This document shows positions 1,323 to 56,435 of a stretch of DNA of 64,000 bases, one piece after another. Position 1 is the first letter of the stretch; each line of letters begins with the position of its first letter. The stretch is from Candidatus Uhrbacteria bacterium (GTDB taxonomy: Bacteria; Patescibacteriota; Patescibacteriia; UBA9934; GWF2-40-263). The stretch is from NCBI GenBank assembly GCA_016844925.1, contig JAERTI010000056.1, forward strand, positions 96,533 through 160,532. Direction: 5' to 3'. Position numbers and translations under genes: made by a program. The notes under the pieces were generated by a model, which worked only from the letters and a program-made list of their open reading frames with translations, was not told the origin of the DNA and did not search any database.

Positions 1323-1406
1323 TATGCGCTCGACAAAATAAGGTTCTTTTTGCTAAGGTCCTGCCATGCTCAATCCAGCATCGTGCTGGAGAATTACGGA
1401 GGTGAG

Positions 1407-1974
1407 CATGTTCGAGGACAGTTTCGCGCGGATGAGAGCCGACGAAGACGATGGTGGTGGTGAGACGCTGAGCCTCCTGCACATGATCAACGTTCGGCCC
1501 TTCGACATCGCGTCGGTGGAGGCCTACAAGGCACAGCAGATCAAGGAGAACACGCCGTTCATCCCGATGACCCCCGAGCGGGTCGCTCTGCTCGGCGAGG
1601 TCCTGAACCGTGGGGTCGCCCTGTCGATCGCCGCAGCGGGCGTGTGCGGCTTCCTGGCGCTCAGCGTCAGCAGCTGGTTCTGGCTGGCTCTGCCGCTGGC
1701 AGCCCTGCACGTGATCGCCGACATGTACATCTGGAACAAGTCCCTGCGCGGACACCCGAGCTGGCAGCGCGTCTCGCACGATGACTACGAGGACTTCATC
1801 CCGGTGCAGGTGCTCGGTGCTCTGGAGCGAGTGCGGGCCATGTTCCCGCGGGCCAGCTTCTACATCGACAAGCTGGTGCAGAACGAGACGATCATCGACC
1901 CCTTCCTGGTCGCCAACATCGACGGCGTCGACTACTACATCGCCGTCTGGGACGAGGACGACTTCCTGGTCTGA
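1407..1974 (+). CDS. hypothetical membrane protein (GC-rich island)
   Basis: ORF 1366..1974; preferred start MFEDSF at 1407 with GGAGGTGAGC just upstream; two predicted TM helices (ALSIAAAGVCGFLALSVSSWFWLALPLAALHVIA); no recognisable family. Confidence 0.4.
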
Positions 1975-23170: not shown

Positions 23171-23755
23171 CTACTCGGTCGTTTCCGAGGGCATGATGTA
23201 GGTGCGCTGCTCGACAACCTTCCAGGTCATCGTCTCGATGTCGCAATCGTAGGTAACCATGGGCATCGGCTCGCCATCCTTCCCACTGACAACCCACCCA
23301 CTGTCGGTCCGCTGAGTGCAGTGGTTGGACTTTGGGGCGCTGAAGGGCTGGATGAATTCGATGCGGACGTCATCACCCGGGACAAGTCCGTGGACCTGAA
23401 AGTCGCTGACATCCATGTTCAATGACCAGTAGAACACCTTTCCCCTGACCCTGACAATAATGCCCGTTGGCCCCATCACTGTCTCGAACAATCGCAGCGA
23501 GTCGAAGTCGAAGCAGTGAAGACCACCGTGTACATTCACCCAGACAGGCGCACTGTCACGAGTGACGAAGCGATGCTCTTTGGCACGCTGCGCGACATCG
23601 TGGGCGTGAGTCTTGTAGTCCGTGTGGTCCGTGTCGGCCTCCAGCGAGATCTTGACCGTGTACTGACACTCCTGCGCGAACGCAGGGGTCGTGACGCTGG
23701 CCAGTCCAAGTAGAAGGACGAGAAGAACGTTGAAAGATCGCATGTATCTCCTCAA
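23171..23755 (-). CDS. hypothetical secreted protein (GC-rich island)
   Basis: N-terminal signal peptide (LLVLLLGLASVTTPAFAQE); GC about 60%; no recognisable family. Confidence 0.4.
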   Translation of the reverse strand: MRRYMRSFNVLLVLLLGLASVTTPAFAQECQYTVKISLEADTDHTDYKTHAHDVAQRAKEHRFVTRDSAPVWVNVHGGLHCFDFDSLRLFETVMGPTGIIVRVRGKVFYWSLNMDVSDFQVHGLVPGDDVRIEFIQPFSAPKSNHCTQRTDSGWVVSGKDGEPMPMVTYDCDIETMTWKVVEQRTYIMPSETTE

Positions 23756-33895: not shown

Positions 33896-35358
33896 ACCCT
33901 CTTAAACAAAGCCTTTATCTGCACGAAATCTTCTTTTCCAACGGACTGCGTCAACCAGAGTGCAGCTATATAAACAATTGCCCCAATAGGAATAACCGCC
34001 ATCCATCCAACAATAGGCTTCAGTAAGACAACGGCAATCGTCATAATCCCACCGGAAAGATAGATGAGCGAGACAGGCCCTAGGAACGCTCGTAAAGAAA
34101 ATGTTGGAATGATGGAACGGACAAAGTAAAGGCCTGCTAAAAACATGAAGATAAAACTAGCGAGCGCGGCATAGGCAGCGCCCAGGACACCAATTTGAGG
34201 AATCAGCATCCAGTTGAGAGAGACGTTTATGACCATGGTGACACCCATGATAGCTGTCTTTGTGATCTGTCGATCCGCGGCATTGAGTAGAGAGCCAATG
34301 GGAAAATCTAGAAAGATAGGAAGGAGAACGAAGACAAGTGTTTGCAGCACAATCGCCGAGGTGGCGTACTCAGCACCGGCCAGTAAAACGACCTCAGGTG
34401 CGACGGCCCAGAGTCCAAAGACAATAGGTGCTGACAGGAGGGCCATGTACCAAATCGCTTTGTTAAAAATACGTTTAAGAGCCGCGGGATCCTTCCCCAC
34501 CACAGCACTCATACCTGGATAGAGCGCCGCAACGAATGCCAAGGGAAGAAATTGAAAAGCGTAGGTGAATTTGTAAGCAATCGAATAGATGCCCACAGCG
34601 GTTGTGTCCAAAAACTTTGAAATGAAAATCGTGTCGATGTACGAGTAGACTTTTACAAAAATTGAAGCGAGAGCAAATGGTAATGCCGTTCGCATGATCC
34701 AAAGGAGCTCACTACGACGCCAGCGTGGGCGCAATGCCCCCCAGCCAAGTAAGCGTACGATCTTCGTTCCGCTAACCATGACGTTCACCACGCTTCCCAT
34801 CAAGAGAGCGGCTATAAGAAACGGAAGGGACGGAGAAAGCCAAAGGACAAGTCCACCAAGAGTCCCTGTGGTGGCCATACCCAAAAAGATGCCTATTGAT
34901 TCATACTTAAGCGCCTGGTAGCCACGGAGGACACCATAGAACAACAGGTGTATGGCATCGAGACCCAAGATAAGACTCGCGAACATGATGAGACGCTGCA
35001 GAGAGACGTCATAGCCAAGTGCAGCACCTGTTAACGTTGCGCCAACCATTGCCATCAGGATCAGAGGGATCTTGAGAGCTACTGCGTGCTGCAGGTGCTC
35101 TTTGGCTCGTTCAGGAGTTTTGGCGATCTCTCGAATCACTACCGGAGTGATTCCCATATCTGCAACAACCGTGAAGATAACTGTAATAGACACCGCCAAG
35201 AAGTACTGCCCTGTGAGATCGGGCATCATTACCCGTGCAAGAAACAAAAAATAGACAAAGGCGATTACCTTTTGCCCCACTGATGCCAGGGTTAAATAGA
35301 AGGTATTTTTAGCTAATCGTTCAGTCACAGTGAGGCTATTGTATAGGATTTTAGGCAA
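33892..35358 (-). CDS. Wzx-like oligosaccharide flippase (MOP superfamily polysaccharide biosynthesis protein)
   Basis: 488 aa with about 14 TM helices; first gene of the co-directional glycan cluster. Confidence 0.6.
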   Translation of the reverse strand: MPKILYNSLTVTERLAKNTFYLTLASVGQKVIAFVYFLFLARVMMPDLTGQYFLAVSITVIFTVVADMGITPVVIREIAKTPERAKEHLQHAVALKIPLILMAMVGATLTGAALGYDVSLQRLIMFASLILGLDAIHLLFYGVLRGYQALKYESIGIFLGMATTGTLGGLVLWLSPSLPFLIAALLMGSVVNVMVSGTKIVRLLGWGALRPRWRRSELLWIMRTALPFALASIFVKVYSYIDTIFISKFLDTTAVGIYSIAYKFTYAFQFLPLAFVAALYPGMSAVVGKDPAALKRIFNKAIWYMALLSAPIVFGLWAVAPEVVLLAGAEYATSAIVLQTLVFVLLPIFLDFPIGSLLNAADRQITKTAIMGVTMVINVSLNWMLIPQIGVLGAAYAALASFIFMFLAGLYFVRSIIPTFSLRAFLGPVSLIYLSGGIMTIAVVLLKPIVGWMAVIPIGAIVYIAALWLTQSVGKEDFVQIKALFKRV

Positions 35359-35384
35359 AATAAATACCCGCCATGCGTTGGCGG
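35355..35384 (-). terminator. rho-independent terminator (minus strand) after the GC-rich orphan gene
   Basis: Perfect 7-bp stem cccgcca/tggcggg with loop tgcgt, followed on the minus strand by TATTTATTTT. Confidence 0.55.
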
Positions 35385-35397
35385 GATGAGGTGGGAA

Positions 35398-36687
35398 CTA
35401 GTCCCCTTCCTCCGTGGGCAGGTCCGAGAACAGGCTCGGTCCGTCGTAGGGCAGGAGCAGCTCGCGCCCCGTCTTGATGCGCCCTCGCTTGTCAGGCGAG
35501 ATCTTTGCCTTGGACTCAGGGCGGGTGCTCACCGGACGCGCCATCAGCTGCTTGAGCACCTTCGGCCTGTGTCCGATGACGCGAGACCAGATCTCCTCGA
35601 GCCCGGGGCCGAGATCACCGTACAGGATGGCTTCTGCCTGTGAGAGCAGGACCACATCGTTGCCGAAGGTCTGCCAGGGGTTCGGCGTGGAACTCTCGGA
35701 CACCTGCGCGTTCGAATCCTTGGTCTTGAACATCTTGCCGAGACCACCGAAGAACCGCTTCAGAGCCCCTTGTTCCTCCTCGTTCTTCATCGCGAGCGGA
35801 TCCTCTTCGACCCTTCCGTCTCGGAACGTCCCCTCCGGATTGCCATCGAGCTTGATGTCCTGCACAACGATGACACACCGCTGCCTGACCACCTCCTCTC
35901 CGTCCTCCATGACCGTGTAGGGCACGTAGGCGTGCGCGCAGTAGATCTCGAAGGTGGCGCCGGTCTGGACCTCACCCTTGCCGTACAGATTCACCAGACG
36001 ACGACAGGCAGACTCCAGGCGTGCGCGCAGGATGGTCCGAGAGTCGTAGTCCGCATCCCGATCCTCGTCAGAGGTCAGGACCTTCACCTCCTCTCGGAAC
36101 AGGTTGACCACCTCGCTTGTCGACGGGAACAGCTGAACGAACACGTCCACGTCCTCTTCGCCGGTGTCCGGGTCGACCTCCGTGTGCATGATGGTTCCAC
36201 GGATGGCGATGATGGCGGGCGTGTGCTGATCCGCAAGGACCATCGATCGCTCAGACGCGCTGGGGTAGTCGATCACCTTGCCGCCAACACCCTCGTCACC
36301 GGGGACCGTCAGATCCTCGCCCTCTTCGTTGCCTGAGAACGTGCTGAGCGGCTGCTCGGCAGTCAACAGACGAACGAATGGGACGTGCGCCGGCATCTCC
36401 CCCGGAAGGAAGGTCTCACCCGTGACCGTGTTGGTCGCGATGAAGACGTGCGTCTCACGCCCAGGCACTTCGGACTCGAACTCAGCTGCCGCCCGATTTG
36501 CCGAGAGCTCGTCGAACGGGATCAGCTTGCCAGCACGATCCAGCATGACGCGTTCACGTGACTGACTGTTGCCGGTGAGCATCACCACCGCCCCCTTTCG
36601 GACAGCCTTCTCGGGCAGCTCTGACACATCGGCGACGACCTTGTTGGTCGGCACCTGGATGCGGTTGTCATTGTTTTTTTGGGTCAC
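35398..36687 (-). CDS. hypothetical protein, 429 aa (GC-rich island; no recognisable domain)
   Basis: GTG start preceded by AAAGGAGG with a 5-nt spacer; GC about 60% with strong third-position G/C bias; acidic, soluble; ends ...PTEEGD. Confidence 0.5.
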   Translation of the reverse strand: MTQKNNDNRIQVPTNKVVADVSELPEKAVRKGAVVMLTGNSQSRERVMLDRAGKLIPFDELSANRAAAEFESEVPGRETHVFIATNTVTGETFLPGEMPAHVPFVRLLTAEQPLSTFSGNEEGEDLTVPGDEGVGGKVIDYPSASERSMVLADQHTPAIIAIRGTIMHTEVDPDTGEEDVDVFVQLFPSTSEVVNLFREEVKVLTSDEDRDADYDSRTILRARLESACRRLVNLYGKGEVQTGATFEIYCAHAYVPYTVMEDGEEVVRQRCVIVVQDIKLDGNPEGTFRDGRVEEDPLAMKNEEEQGALKRFFGGLGKMFKTKDSNAQVSESSTPNPWQTFGNDVVLLSQAEAILYGDLGPGLEEIWSRVIGHRPKVLKQLMARPVSTRPESKAKISPDKRGRIKTGRELLLPYDGPSLFSDLPTEEGD

Positions 36688-36729
36688 TCAATCCTCCTTT
36701 AGCCTGCAAAACAGGCCAGAGCGACGCTT

Positions 36730-36759
36730 GATATAATCAGGGATATGGGTGTTTGTCAA
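36730..36759 (-). promoter_or_regulatory. strong sigma70-like promoter for the GC-rich orphan gene
   Basis: On the minus strand: TTGACA, 18-bp spacer, TATATC, then the AAAGGAGG ribosome-binding site and GTG. Confidence 0.5.
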
Positions 36760-36779
36760 CCCATTCCAGTGTCATAATA

Positions 36780-36808
36780 AACAAAAAATGGACATTTCGT
36801 CCATTTTT
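36780..36808 (-). terminator. rho-independent terminator ending the ribosomal-protein operon
   Basis: aaatggac-atttc-gtccattt hairpin with flanking A/T runs. Confidence 0.6.
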
Positions 36809-36817
36809 CTTGATCTT

Positions 36818-37222
36818 TTATCGTTTTGAGAACTGTGGGGCGCGACGAGCACCTTTCAATCCAGGCTTCTTTCGCTCACGTCGGCGTGCGTCAGTTGTCA
36901 GGAAGCCGAGACGCTTAAGTACGGTTCGGAACTCTGGGTTAAATTCCACGAGCCCGCGAGAAATGCCGAGTCGGATACTATCAGCCTGTCCATGAATACC
37001 ACCTCCCTTTGTATGAACCGTGATATCGAAGACATTTTCTGTTCCAGTTTCACGTAGCGGCGCCATCACTGACTGCTGCAATGTTTCAACTGGCAAATAC
37101 TCGAGTAGATCTCGATCATTGACCGTAATCTTGCCTGATCCATTGTGATGCAATCGCACGCGTGAAACTGAGCGTTTTCGTCGTCCAACTGATTCGATGT
37201 AGTTGTGTGCTTGTTCGCTCAT
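36818..37222 (-). CDS. rpsI: 30S ribosomal protein S9
   Basis: C-terminal ...[19 protein letters not shown]...[22 protein letters not shown]. Confidence 0.9.
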
Positions 37223-49786: not shown

Positions 49787-49817
49787 TTATCTTCGCATGT
49801 CCACACTAGGAGGAACT

Positions 49818-50747
49818 ATGGACTACAGAGCGTTCCTGCGCAGACACGACGCTGCGCTCAAGACGGCAGGACTCTGGGCGAGGGCCTGGACACTGCAGCG
49901 ACTGCTCGAAAGCTGCCTGCTCGTCGTCAAGATGGATGCAACCTACTACACACGTGAGTGGGCCATCAAGCACCGACAGATGCTGGTCGATGCTCTCTGC
50001 GAAGTCTGTGTGACGGCGCAGATCCCGCTGCCGGACATCGAGCCGGACATGGTCAATGGCCTGTTGCCCACGGACCAAGAACTGAAGCCCGGCTCCCGCA
50101 AACGACTCGAGATCGTCCAGACCTTGCGCGGTCGACTGCGTGATCACGGGAGTCTGGGAGCGGCAGAGCTCCACGGCTTTGCCGATGTGCTCAGCGCCTT
50201 CGAGTTCAACGACTTCAGCGGCCCCAACATGGTCCAGATGCTCGCCGCAATCAACGCTCGCCTGCTCAAGGAGGGGCTCGAGCCCCTCCGTGGCCCCTAC
50301 AAGGGCAATGTGATCTGCCCGGGCGCTGGCACAGAGGGACCTCTGCGCACGGTGCTGATCGTGGACGACAGTCTGGAGGCCTTGATCAAGACGTGGATCG
50401 CCGTCGCAGGTTGGCCCACTCTCGAGCCTCACAAGTACCTGTACGAACCCTCGCAGAGAACCCTGCTGGAGGGAGAGGCAAGCGAGACTCGGCTTGCCGA
50501 GGTGGCCGCGCAAATCCTGAAGTGCCAGCCGGACGTCGTCATCATGGACCACGGCCTGGGCGACATCCACGGAGACAAGCTCATCGAGACCCTTCGGGCG
50601 AGCGGTGGCAAGGACATCATCTTCGTCGCCAATACCGGCGGTGACATCGACGCGTTCAGATCCGTCCGATTGCGCGAGAACTTCGACAAGGGCAAGAACC
50701 TCTCTGCCCTCGCGTCGGCGCTCCATCGAGCGAACCGACGCCGCTAG
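49818..50747 (+). CDS. orphan response-regulator-like protein: novel N-terminal domain with a C-terminal receiver (REC) domain (GC-rich island)
   Basis: AGGAGG ribosome-binding site 5 nt before the ATG at 49818; C-terminus has VLIVDD (beta1), DVVIMDHGLGDIHG (beta3 with phospho-acceptor Asp), ANTGG (beta4 Thr) and FDKGK (beta5 Lys); the N-terminal 175 aa show no recognisable motif. Confidence 0.5.
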   Translation: MDYRAFLRRHDAALKTAGLWARAWTLQRLLESCLLVVKMDATYYTREWAIKHRQMLVDALCEVCVTAQIPLPDIEPDMVNGLLPTDQELKPGSRKRLEIVQTLRGRLRDHGSLGAAELHGFADVLSAFEFNDFSGPNMVQMLAAINARLLKEGLEPLRGPYKGNVICPGAGTEGPLRTVLIVDDSLEALIKTWIAVAGWPTLEPHKYLYEPSQRTLLEGEASETRLAEVAAQILKCQPDVVIMDHGLGDIHGDKLIETLRASGGKDIIFVANTGGDIDAFRSVRLRENFDKGKNLSALASALHRANRRR

Positions 50748-50814: not shown

Positions 50815-50865
50815 TCGTGTGGCGAATGGATTGCCGCACCCGAAACTCCTAGGCCTGGAGGGCCT

Positions 50866-51513
50866 ATGTTTACCCTCATGCTCGTGCCCATGTTCTCGCC
50901 GGATGGCGAAGAAGGCGGGCGGCGTGAGAAGCGGAAGGTTCCCCGAAAGAACCCCCGCATCAAGAGCAAGCTCGTCTGCGAGAAGGACCCCAAGAGCGGA
51001 AAGACTACCGGCACAGCCGTGCTGAACATGCACCAGTGCACCGGAGACCTGGCTCCGCAGCGGTTCGAAAGCGGACGTCTGTACAAGCAACTCCTCTTCA
51101 GCATCACCGAGGACCACGGCGTCCCTGCATTCACCAACCTGACCCCCAAGGGCATGGAGGCGTTCGTCGCGGGCAACAGTCGCCCCATCCAGATCGTGGA
51201 AGTCATCGCCGTCCCCGACTTCGATGGCGGAGAGCTCGAAGTCACGATGTACTCCACCCCGCCCATCAGCTGGGGTGGCAAGGACCTCTCCGACAAGCTG
51301 ATGGCTACGGGCCTGCTCATGCTCATGGGCTACGAGGAGATCCCGCTGGGTGAAGACGCCGAGGCCAGCATGGACCTGGGTCTGCCCGAGCTCGACGAAG
51401 GCTTCATCGACCTGCTCGACAGCACCATGGGCTACCACTCCCCCGAGATGGACATGGAACTCCTGGAGGACGAGAACTCCGACGATTGGCTCTTCGAGGC
51501 CGAAGGCGACTAG
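50866..51513 (+). CDS. hypothetical acidic protein (GC-rich island)
   Basis: 215 aa; basic N-terminus (RREKRKVPRKNPRIKSK) and a very acidic C-terminal third ending ...DDWLFEAEGD; the 50605 ORF is a 5' extension. Confidence 0.4.
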   Translation: MFTLMLVPMFSPDGEEGGRREKRKVPRKNPRIKSKLVCEKDPKSGKTTGTAVLNMHQCTGDLAPQRFESGRLYKQLLFSITEDHGVPAFTNLTPKGMEAFVAGNSRPIQIVEVIAVPDFDGGELEVTMYSTPPISWGGKDLSDKLMATGLLMLMGYEEIPLGEDAEASMDLGLPELDEGFIDLLDSTMGYHSPEMDMELLEDENSDDWLFEAEGD

Positions 51514-53420: not shown

Positions 53421-54308
53421 GTGATCGATATCAGACAAGTGGAGACAGCCCAGCAGGCGTTTGACCTGCTCTCAGACGGAGAGCCCAAGATCATCAGCCG
53501 ATACGGCGCTCCGGAACTGATCCGACGTGCGGGCCTCGTGAAGGCCGGCGCATTCGACTTCGACGGCACGCTGATCACCAAGGCCCAGTGGGACGAGGTG
53601 GCCAAGCTGATGCCAGAAGATCTCCGACGGCGAGATCGAGAGTTCATCGAGTGGTACTTGGAACACCGAACCGACCAAGACCTGCCCGATACCACCCTCG
53701 ACGACCCAGACTGGTTCCACAGCCACCTGCTCGACTCCAACCGGACCGCAGCAGAGGGTGGATCTGTGGCACAGTTCGCCCACTTCTGTGAACGCTCCGG
53801 CATCACGCTGGGGAACCTGATCGAGACGGGCATGGAGCTCCCTCCCCGGGACGGTGCCATCGAGCTTCTCAAGCTCTTTGTCCTGTACGTCATCATCAGC
53901 TACGGCATCGAACACGTGATCCAGGGCTTCGCCAAGGCGCACGGCCTAGATCCGCACATCGTGGCCAGTCGCTTCAAGTTCCGCGAGCCGGACATGTTGG
54001 TCATGGGTCACGAATACAACGTCGTGGTCAGCTCCACCAAGCCGCTGGCAGCCAACCGGTTCCGCACCCTCACGGGCATCGCTGACGAAGAAATGCTCGT
54101 CGTCGGCGATTCGGTCGTGGACGTAGAGATGATGCACCCAGGAGGGCTCAACATCCTCGTCATGCCCTGCAAGGAAGCCAACAAGAAGCTCACGGCCTTC
54201 CGCAACGGCAACCTCGCTGGCATGTGGCCCAAGCTCACGGCCATCCTCTACAGCGACTCGCTCATGCCGCTAGTCGAGCTCATCGAGCTCGGACGCAGCC
54301 GCTCGTAG
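53421..54308 (+). CDS. HAD-superfamily hydrolase (GC-rich island)
   Basis: HAD motif I FDFDGTLI, motif IV VVGDSVVDVEM; GTG start after an AAAGGAG ribosome-binding site; GC about 62%. Confidence 0.6.
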   Translation: MIDIRQVETAQQAFDLLSDGEPKIISRYGAPELIRRAGLVKAGAFDFDGTLITKAQWDEVAKLMPEDLRRRDREFIEWYLEHRTDQDLPDTTLDDPDWFHSHLLDSNRTAAEGGSVAQFAHFCERSGITLGNLIETGMELPPRDGAIELLKLFVLYVIISYGIEHVIQGFAKAHGLDPHIVASRFKFREPDMLVMGHEYNVVVSSTKPLAANRFRTLTGIADEEMLVVGDSVVDVEMMHPGGLNILVMPCKEANKKLTAFRNGNLAGMWPKLTAILYSDSLMPLVELIELGRSRS

Positions 54309-55952: not shown

Positions 55953-56435
55953 ATGTTGATGAGAGAATTTCACGTTCTGGTCATCGAGGACAACGCCGCC
56001 GAAGAGAAGCGCCTCATGGCGTTCCTGGCAGAGCACATGCCGGGAGATCGGAAGCTGCGCATCCACTGGCACCGCACCGTCGAGAGCGGACTGCGCTTCC
56101 TGATCGGGTGCGGATACGACATCCGGATGATCTTCTGCCACGACGTCCAGCCCGCCAGGGTGGCCACGGCCGAGGAGCGCAAGACCCTGTCGCTCGTCAC
56201 CGAGCGTCCCGAGCGCACCGGCGAGGTCTGGCGCCTCATGACCTGCATGAGCGCCCTGCAGATGGACCGCCCCCTCTTGATCGGTCTGTGCGACAGGATC
56301 AAGGGCACGCGAGACCTGCAGAAGCCCTTGGACTACCACGGTCCGGTCGGCTTCTACCTCGCCCGCCACAAGACCGAACCCTGGTCCTGCGTCAGCGACG
56401 CCGTGACGGAACTCACCGTCAGCCGCGCCGCCTGA
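55953..56435 (+). CDS. small hypothetical protein, possibly a divergent single-domain receiver (CheY-like) protein (GC-rich island)
   Basis: AAGGAG ribosome-binding site 7 nt upstream; VLVIEDNAAEEKRLMAFL (beta1/alpha1-like) and DIRMIFCHDVQP (beta3-like); GC about 63%; the 55656 ORF is a 5' extension. Confidence 0.4.
   Translation: MLMREFHVLVIEDNAAEEKRLMAFLAEHMPGDRKLRIHWHRTVESGLRFLIGCGYDIRMIFCHDVQPARVATAEERKTLSLVTERPERTGEVWRLMTCMSALQMDRPLLIGLCDRIKGTRDLQKPLDYHGPVGFYLARHKTEPWSCVSDAVTELTVSRAA

Follow-up and report, generated by a model that had tools for sequence, protein, structure and literature searches.

What kind of gene lies in the GC-rich stretch between a ribosomal operon and a glycan cluster in a Candidatus Uhrbacteria genome, and where did it come from? 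The question concerns 64,000 nucleotides (nt) of assembly GCA_016844925.1 (contig JAERTI010000056.1, positions 96,533 to 160,532 of the forward strand), which were analyzed as a whole and are called the window in the following; coordinates without a locus number refer to the window, and homologous loci elsewhere are numbered L001, L003 and so on. A single gene of 429 codons in this stretch, here named gene B, had been taken by the first-pass annotation for a foreign, highly expressed-looking cassette that encodes an orphan protein, a candidate effector or toxin/immunity factor. Our analysis favors a different reading, in which gene B would be a vertically inherited member of a small Uhrbacteria-like family and its soluble product a binding or scaffold module.

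Gene B, its family and its descent

The gene under study is the following feature.

35398..36687, minus strand: gene B, encoding a soluble acidic protein of 429 amino acids (aa) that belongs to a small family confined to Uhrbacteria and unmatched by curated families (basis: open reading frame (ORF), substitution rates, homologues, 17-sequence alignment A5 and AlphaFold core)

The ORF starts with GTG at 36687. Compared with its 94%-identical orthologue at L001, gene B showed a ratio of nonsynonymous to synonymous substitution rates (dN/dS) of 0.16, and eleven neighboring genes gave values of 0.00-0.10; gene B is under purifying selection. Its dS of 0.19 was the lowest among these twelve genes (0.24-0.80 in the others) without being a clear outlier. 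The dN/dS value, 17 collinear homologues and a predicted core with AlphaFold confidence (predicted local distance difference test, pLDDT) of 85-92 together identify gene B as a genuine protein-coding gene and not a chance ORF.

The encoded protein has an isoelectric point (pI) of 4.8, with 72 Asp and Glu versus 49 Lys and Arg residues, and a grand average of hydropathy of -0.44. When the translation was inspected by eye, with no predictor used, neither a hydrophobic signal peptide nor a transmembrane segment was seen, the N-terminus (MTQKNNDNRIQVPTNKVV...) included; non-classical export is outside the scope of such an inspection. The protein had no match in Pfam, NCBIfam, PHROGs or PADLOC. When Pfam and PADLOC were run on the 17 family members, scattered single-member noise was all that appeared, and no PADLOC match was credited to any member. 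Neither the protein alone nor profiles A5 and A6 found more than noise among PDB sequences, at E-values of 0.3-0.55 (Cap12, a CBS-domain protein). The earlier description of an acidic soluble protein without a recognizable motif or family was thus borne out.

The term orphan was correct with respect to curated families, but a small family does exist. Among 5.8 billion proteins, a word-indexed search turned up three homologues of full length, with 94, 54 and 50% identity. No more than nine family proteins came out of an exhaustive profile search over 1.84 billion cluster representatives; they include forms of 463 and 352 aa and a short subfamily (265-313 aa). A third search seeded with the short forms found six further members. 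Altogether about 17 homologues with 22-94% identity are at hand, all on Ca. Uhrbacteria/Patescibacteria-type contigs, a phylogenetic distribution that speaks against foreign origin. For three members NCBI gives a name: two are listed as 'hypothetical protein [Candidatus Uhrbacteria bacterium]' and one as 'hypothetical protein [Patescibacteria group bacterium]'. No description of the family was found in the literature, and no paralogue of gene B or of gene A, its neighbor in relatives, was found elsewhere in the window.

The 17 family sequences span 265-463 aa and are collinear over their full length (alignment A5). Invariant positions, in the numbering of the window protein, are R77, G164, E178, P188, R230, V240, G243, F246, W338, E352, W367, G407, G416, L419 and F420, and D277 is nearly invariant; profile search and alignments place the window protein in the family by full-length collinear similarity with these residues. 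Members of the long subfamily have a pI of 4.7-5.3 versus 5.5-7.8 in the short forms. The N-terminal extension (about residues 30-65) is well conserved inside the long subfamily and probably forms a small extra domain.

The genomic position of gene B was compared among 12 recovered contexts from independent ENA, Logan, JGI and NCBI assemblies. In 11 of these a homologue occupies the same slot, across 24-94% protein identity, in the order murJ-alaS-infA-rpsM-rpsK-rpsD-rpoA-rplQ-rplM-rpsI-(gene A)-B-Wzx-type flippase-GT4-GT2-Wzy; beyond Wzy, fmt, def and priA lie on the opposite strand. The slot is thus defined by rpsI (or gene A) on one side and the Wzx-type flippase on the other, with a TTGACA/TGn promoter and terminators around the gene; gene B of the window lies in it and L085 is the single exception. 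At L085, the homologue stands between two mutually paralogous single-pass membrane proteins (L085:331-1146 and L085:2140-2907) sharing a C-terminal Cys-containing domain (C-N/D-F-A...DRPM...C-x-QG...FSFRF), and the locus lies 3' of a gene read as rplT. No relatives of these membrane proteins were present in the window.

Ranked by identity to their window counterparts, the gene B proteins and the neighboring flippases put the loci in the same order.

L003: gene B 0.55, flippase 0.84
L086: gene B 0.41, flippase 0.77
L088-L094: gene B 0.28-0.33, flippase about 0.62

This agreement argues for vertical descent. Gene B evolves far faster than its neighbors, with 32% identity versus 60-85% for ribosomal proteins at equal distance, and has undergone many insertions and deletions. 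Neither integrase or transposase genes nor tRNA genes, flanking repeats, target-site duplications or terminal repeats were found at its borders, and the gaps beside it, of 130 nt and about 40-70 nt, contain nothing besides promoter and terminator elements. A mobile-element reading was dropped since flanking repeats were lacking. By tblastn, none of 50,697 phage records and none of 72,556 plasmid records was matched, and no relative was found in IMG/VR with alignments A1 and A4 or in GTDB representative genomes with alignment A1; a JGI metagenome scan returned only the contig already found. Judged by these comparisons, gene B is not a foreign or mobile cassette and appears vertically inherited in a small Uhrbacteria-like clade. 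We regard this genomic and evolutionary part of our reading as very probable.

In the whole window, no tRNA gene was found by scanning and no Rfam family reached its gathering score, ribosomal-protein leaders included. The adjacent RpsI (36818-37222, minus strand), compared with 185,579 GTDB species representatives, gave mostly 47-57% identity (top 59%) and a mix of CPR (Candidate Phyla Radiation), Chloroflexota and Firmicutes among the best matches. A pattern scan of the GTDB representatives with RpsI yielded no close genome and did not recover the species-level lineage of the window; Uhrbacteria contigs obtained by other routes have RpsI with 63-84% identity.

The label 'foreign' had been derived from base composition, and the values themselves (about 60% GC, strong bias at third codon positions) were confirmed: gene B has a GC content of 0.622 and a GC content at third codon positions (GC3) of 0.80, the eight flanking genes have GC3 of 0.35-0.51 and the window as a whole has a GC content of 0.512. 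GC3 of gene B was then set beside that of the flanking genes locus by locus.

Window: gene B 0.80, flanks 0.35-0.51
L001: gene B 0.75, flanks 0.38-0.51
L003: gene B 0.67, flanks 0.36-0.45
L004: gene B 0.60, flanks 0.29-0.44, gene A 0.67
L086: gene B 0.70, flanks 0.38-0.56
L088: gene B 0.69, flanks 0.51-0.59
L092: gene B 0.65, flanks 0.45-0.56
L094: gene B 0.65, flanks 0.55-0.67, no contrast
L090: gene B 0.78, flanks 0.70-0.78, no contrast

Genes A and B thus hold a GC3 of 0.6-0.8 while the background spans about 0.3-0.8 across genomes, and the raised values of both genes are also present in lower-GC genomes. The high GC3 of gene B is a long-standing property and not the trace of a recent import. 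Given a constant slot in all but one of the 12 contexts, a divergence order like that of the neighbors and no mobility genes, the idea of a foreign GC-rich island could not be upheld. The effective number of codons of gene B, 41, is the value predicted by its GC3, so that the shift is compositional and not an extra codon bias. Codon choice is opposite to that of ribosomal-protein genes, as seen for CCC (Pro, 35% versus 0%), CGG (Arg, 17% versus 0%), GCG (Ala, 39% versus 8%) and CTG (Leu, 59% versus 9%). This GC3 might be maintained by selection on synonymous sites or by GC-biased gene conversion, or might be retained from a GC-rich ancestral state.

Further ORFs of the window share the high GC3.

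1366-1974, plus strand: GC3 0.88
23171-23755, minus strand: GC3 0.75; looks as if it has a signal peptide
49797-50747, plus strand: GC3 0.79; weak receiver-domain-like stretch
About 50860-51513, plus strand: GC3 0.75
53421-54308, plus strand: GC3 0.81; HAD-type hydrolase
About 55960-56435, plus strand: GC3 0.75; weak receiver-domain-like stretch

Four of them are each preceded by a TTGACA of their own and followed by a hairpin terminator, and the two that were checked have the same codon usage as gene B. Single-gene units with this composition seem to form a class of their own in the genome.

Promoter, ribosome-binding site and terminators

The following signals were located around gene B, listed in the direction of transcription.

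36783..36809, minus strand: terminator hairpin with T-run that closes the rpsI/ribosomal operon, 5' of gene B (terminator scan and locus comparison)
36745..36764, minus strand: palindrome ATGGGT-N8-ACCCAT over the -35 box, possible operator (read from locus comparison)
36731..36759, minus strand: putative promoter TTGACA-N14-TGa-TTATAT, extended -10 type (sole pattern match in the window; TTGACA, TGn and a TTnnnT box kept in 10 homologous loci)
36702..36717, minus strand: hairpin GCCTG-ttttg-CAGGC of the 5' untranslated region (5'-UTR), directly before the ribosome-binding site (alignment A7)
36693..36700, minus strand: Shine-Dalgarno sequence AAAGGAGG, 5 nt 5' of the GTG start (from the sequence; AGGAG core kept in long-subfamily loci)
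35357..35385, minus strand: intrinsic terminator with a 7-bp stem (6 G-C pairs), a 5-nt loop and a T-rich tail (terminator scan)

The single-gene unit with strong-looking signals described in the first-pass annotation is indeed there, with its GTG start, the AAAGGAGG ribosome-binding site, TTGACA and the 7-bp terminator. The promoter had been read as TTGACA-18-TATATC. These letters are present, with a perfect -35 hexamer at 36759-36754 and, after an 18-nt spacer, TATATC at 36735-36730, and TTGACA is kept in all ten loci; the DNA nevertheless reads better as TTGACA-N14-TGa-TTATAT. A consensus promoter scanner accepted neither reading, as neither -10 has A at position 2 plus T at position 6. The full pattern occurs once in the window versus 0.19 expected, a count reached by 16 of 100 shuffles, and is therefore not significant by itself.

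What makes the promoter credible is its conservation in homologous loci together with the depletion of TTGACA in the window. In each of the 10 loci read, the region upstream of gene B has a hairpin that terminates the gene before it, then an exact TTGACA separated by some 14 nt from TGn, and finally a TTnnnT box, which appears as TTATAT, TTGAGT, TTAAGT, TTGAAT, TTAGAT or TTTCAT. TTGACA itself is strongly depleted, with 20 sites versus 46 +/- 7 expected from shuffles, as would suit a functional signal kept out of other places. Many of these sites are found immediately 5' of gene starts (12130, 28247, 40600, 49765, 50785, 53360, 55894). Depletion and positions before gene starts are both consistent with TTGACA as a working -35 signal of this organism.

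Two smaller elements may add regulation. The palindrome over the -35 box may be an operator; at L003 it reads ATTGGT-N8-ACCAAT, with both arms changed, and L004 and L086 keep only part of it. In the 5'-UTR hairpin the arms differ between long-subfamily loci (GACCGC/GCGGTC at L004, GCCCG/CGGGC at L086, GCCG/CGGC at L003), and these changes look compensatory, which in a set of only five sequences is no more than suggestive.

On the 3' side, the terminator reads CCCGCCA-acgca-TGGCGGG followed by TATTTATTTT (35385-35357), and the hairpin with its tail, gggtatttatttt, is identical in L001 and L004. In all nine syntenic loci read, gene B is followed by a hairpin and a T-run; at L085 the gap is 8 nt only. 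From these signals we infer that gene B would form its own, insulated transcription unit. Strong transcription might likewise be expected from the conserved promoter and ribosome-binding site, and to that extent the impression of a highly expressed gene stands, but the codon usage, being opposite to that of ribosomal-protein genes, argues against strong expression.

Beyond the terminator, a TACAAT box is found 9 nt before GTGAC[CT] (35328-35343, minus strand), and both are conserved at L004, L086, L088, L090, L092 and L094. For this reason the Wzx-type flippase probably starts with GTG at 35328 rather than with the TTG at 35358 given by the ORF finder, and its mRNA would probably be leaderless or nearly so.

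Predicted fold, gene A and possible functions

With 17 sequences, AlphaFold gave a predicted template modeling score of 0.64 and pLDDT values of 85-92 at residues of about 71-115, 150-200, 220-285, 345-390 and 410-420; with four sequences the model was unusable (pLDDT 35). The main confident elements are a long beta-hairpin (159-187), a 20-residue helix (212-232), another long hairpin (245-281) and a pair of long helices (350-383). Residues 1-70, 117-146, 286-332 and 394-402 were poorly modeled; these segments are found in the long subfamily only and account for the acidity of the protein. According to the model, the conserved core of about 300 residues would be an alpha/beta platform, an antiparallel sheet carrying long helices. 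The structure search that the first-pass annotation had recommended, with Foldseek against PDB and BFVD, gave no match with a meaningful template modeling score, and no characterized enzyme family emerged. hhalign gave no sign that the core arose by internal duplication (E-value 0.51). The C-terminal G-P-[SD]-L-F was considered as a sliding-clamp-binding tail and rejected: it is modeled packed on the core (pLDDT about 89) and has no leading Gln.

In many relatives gene A, encoding 330-340 aa, is located between rpsI and gene B, at the following loci.

L004:7823-8815: gene A
L090:6901-7893: gene A
L092:6945-7949: gene A
L094:6894-7898: gene A
L003:1-291: C-terminal fragment of gene A

Where present, gene A has its own terminator, after which the gene B promoter follows. 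It is absent from the window and from the gap between rpsI and gene B in the long-form genomes L001/L002 and L086/L087. No match of gene A to known families was found. An hhalign comparison of the two proteins gave an E-value of 5e-4 over 210 collinear columns at a probability of 30%, and the motifs P-A-I-x-[IL]-R (PAIxxR), [DN]PW (DPW), PxLExxW (PxLExLW), QL and G-[SP]-x-L-[FL] (GxPxL) are common to both; W338, W367 and an acidic residue at the position of E352 also recur in gene A. Gene A is thus probably a distant tandem paralogue of gene B.

Our reading combines these elements as follows. Since before the clade diverged, the place of gene B would have been between the ribosomal/rpoA operon, which ends with rpsI, and the Wzx/Wzy glycan cluster. 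It would be transcribed from a promoter of the sigma-70 type, in which a perfect -35 is combined with a TG-extended -10, translated from a strong ribosome-binding site and delimited by terminators on both sides, and its product appears to be soluble and cytoplasmic. To the core, the long subfamily would add the conserved N-terminal extension and acidic, presumably disordered insertions. The protein may serve in the cytoplasm as a scaffold or as a module that binds a partner or ligand, and not as a recognizable enzyme or toxin, which is the weakest step, and ancestrally it may have worked with its paralogue gene A, lost in the lineage of the window. A binding or scaffold function with gene A as ancestral partner is a tentative proposal, about which we are more doubtful than confident; the reading as a whole we rate at an even chance.

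Several points weigh against it. The invariant residues R77, E178, R230, E352, W338 and W367 and the nearly invariant D277 could mark an active or sugar-binding site. The paralogy of genes A and B comes with an hhalign probability of only 30%, and P0010, the short-form homologue at L085, lies in a different context. Finally, the GC3 anomaly has no explanation in this reading and is counted against it.

Among the alternatives, an accessory role in the glycan pathway is to be preferred, followed by a conflict or defense gene, a foreign effector or toxin and a ribosome-associated factor. As an enzyme or carbohydrate-binding accessory of the adjacent Wzx/Wzy pathway, gene B might for example modify or trim glycans by means of Glu and Trp residues. 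It does adjoin flippase-GT4-GT2-Wzy in the syntenic contexts, and the invariant charged and Trp residues named above, three of which have counterparts in gene A, would suit such an activity. However, a terminator and the separate conserved TACAAT box stand between gene B and the flippase, the whole region is rigidly syntenic so that adjacency is not glycan-specific, and L085 has a homologue without glycan genes nearby. No CAZy-like or other enzyme family was detectable by sequence or fold, and the protein appears cytoplasmic and evolves fast. We therefore consider this role unlikely.

The fast evolution would find a natural place if gene B, with gene A, were a conflict or defense gene, e.g. 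for anti-phage defense or immunity, caught in an arms race; the higher dN/dS than in the neighbors, the presence of gene A in some relatives and its absence in others, and the variable length of 265-463 aa are in line with this. None of the 17 members matched PADLOC, however, nuclease, NTPase and sensor domains were not found, a defense island would not be expected at a constant place behind a ribosomal operon, and a dN/dS of 0.16 is still purifying. A defense function seems improbable to us.

For the horizontally acquired cassette with a novel effector, toxin/immunity or host-interaction factor, as originally proposed, one can cite the atypical GC and GC3, the codon usage unlike that of core genes and again the fast evolution with many insertions and deletions. 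CPR bacteria are generally held to be episymbionts, and host-interaction factors are plausible given this lifestyle. Against it are the rigid synteny and the neighbor-like divergence order over 24-94% identity, the lack of an integrase, tRNA, target-site duplication or terminal repeats at the gene, and the lack of relatives in phages, plasmids, IMG/VR and GTDB representative genomes. By these results the 'foreign' part is largely refuted. The effector or toxin/immunity part is not supported either, as no toxin or defense domain was found in Pfam, NCBIfam, PHROGs or PADLOC, no signal peptide or other secretion signal was seen in the sequence, and the terminators on both sides leave no partner gene in the operon. 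This proposal now appears very unlikely.

An accessory factor of translation or the ribosome, specific to this CPR clade, would agree with the position directly 3' of rplM-rpsI in every syntenic context with the upstream side on the contig, and even the exceptional L085 homologue is 3' of the gene read as rplT. Yet a terminator and a separate promoter set gene B apart from the operon, its 32% identity is far from the 60-85% of ribosomal proteins at the same distance, its codon usage is opposite to theirs, and the acidic protein has no RNA-binding motif. Such a role is hardly to be expected. A chance open frame in GC-rich DNA, or the echo of an antisense gene, was conceivable because long antisense frames arise in high-GC3 DNA and the one in the window is open over 230 codons, but it is already refuted by dN/dS, 17 collinear homologues down to 22% identity, the confident core, the ribosome-binding site and start codon in register and an antisense stretch of only 110 codons, not conserved, at L004. 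An overlapping antisense gene was likewise rejected, the open frame being a by-product of low A at third positions.

At the more speculative end, genes A and B might represent a new CPR fold family, a groove-bearing beta-platform convergent with class I molecules of the major histocompatibility complex (MHC-I) that binds a peptide, lipid or glycan, is abundantly made from a conserved promoter of its own and has its GC-rich, non-host-like codons actively maintained, by synonymous selection or by GC-biased gene conversion at a recombination-prone locus, in genomes with a background GC3 of about 0.3-0.8. We regard this combination as a long shot. No sequence or fold relative of the gene B family was found; a new kind of system is not thereby shown.

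Gene B is one of very many lineage-restricted CPR unknowns, and its general value is modest. Being conserved, equipped with a promoter of its own and fixed in position, gene B is probably of importance to its hosts' lineage. The sole unusual points are the conserved GC-rich codon usage and the unmatched fold: the core is confidently predicted, and no solved or viral structure matches it beyond a weak likeness to MHC platforms. The GC-rich codon usage of gene B and at least four other single-gene units in the window could bear on GC3 variation within reduced genomes.

Comparison with known systems

With genomic islands and polymorphic toxin-immunity cassettes gene B shares an atypical composition, a single unknown gene and fast evolution. 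Mobility signatures, toxin or immunity domains and a partner gene are lacking, however, and a secretion signal was not seen; the location of gene B is not variable, and its inheritance looks vertical.

The nearest named relatives are HZA87_01215, HY631_03885 and WC654_04595, annotated as 'hypothetical protein' in metagenome-assembled genomes of Ca. Uhrbacteria and Patescibacteria. These are true homologues which have the core in common with gene B at 22-28% identity, and P0014 and P0017 occupy a genomic slot identical to that of gene B. As members of the short subfamily (265-328 aa, near-neutral pI), they have neither the N-terminal extension nor the acidic insertions of the window protein, and they are accompanied by gene A wherever the upstream gene is visible.

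Among known folds, the modeled core bears a weak likeness to the alpha1-alpha2 platform of MHC class I-like proteins (cowpox OMCP 4ffe, FcRn, CD1, EPCR, MICB, ULBP). MHC-I platforms are extracellular, have a signal peptide and usually an immunoglobulin-like domain or a beta2-microglobulin partner, and occur in vertebrates and their viruses. The gene B protein, in contrast, is bacterial (CPR), apparently cytoplasmic, without a visible signal peptide and, according to the Pfam results, without an immunoglobulin-like domain, and, at about 300-430 aa, has extra elements in comparison with the MHC-I platform. The likeness most likely reflects a convergent architecture and not homology.

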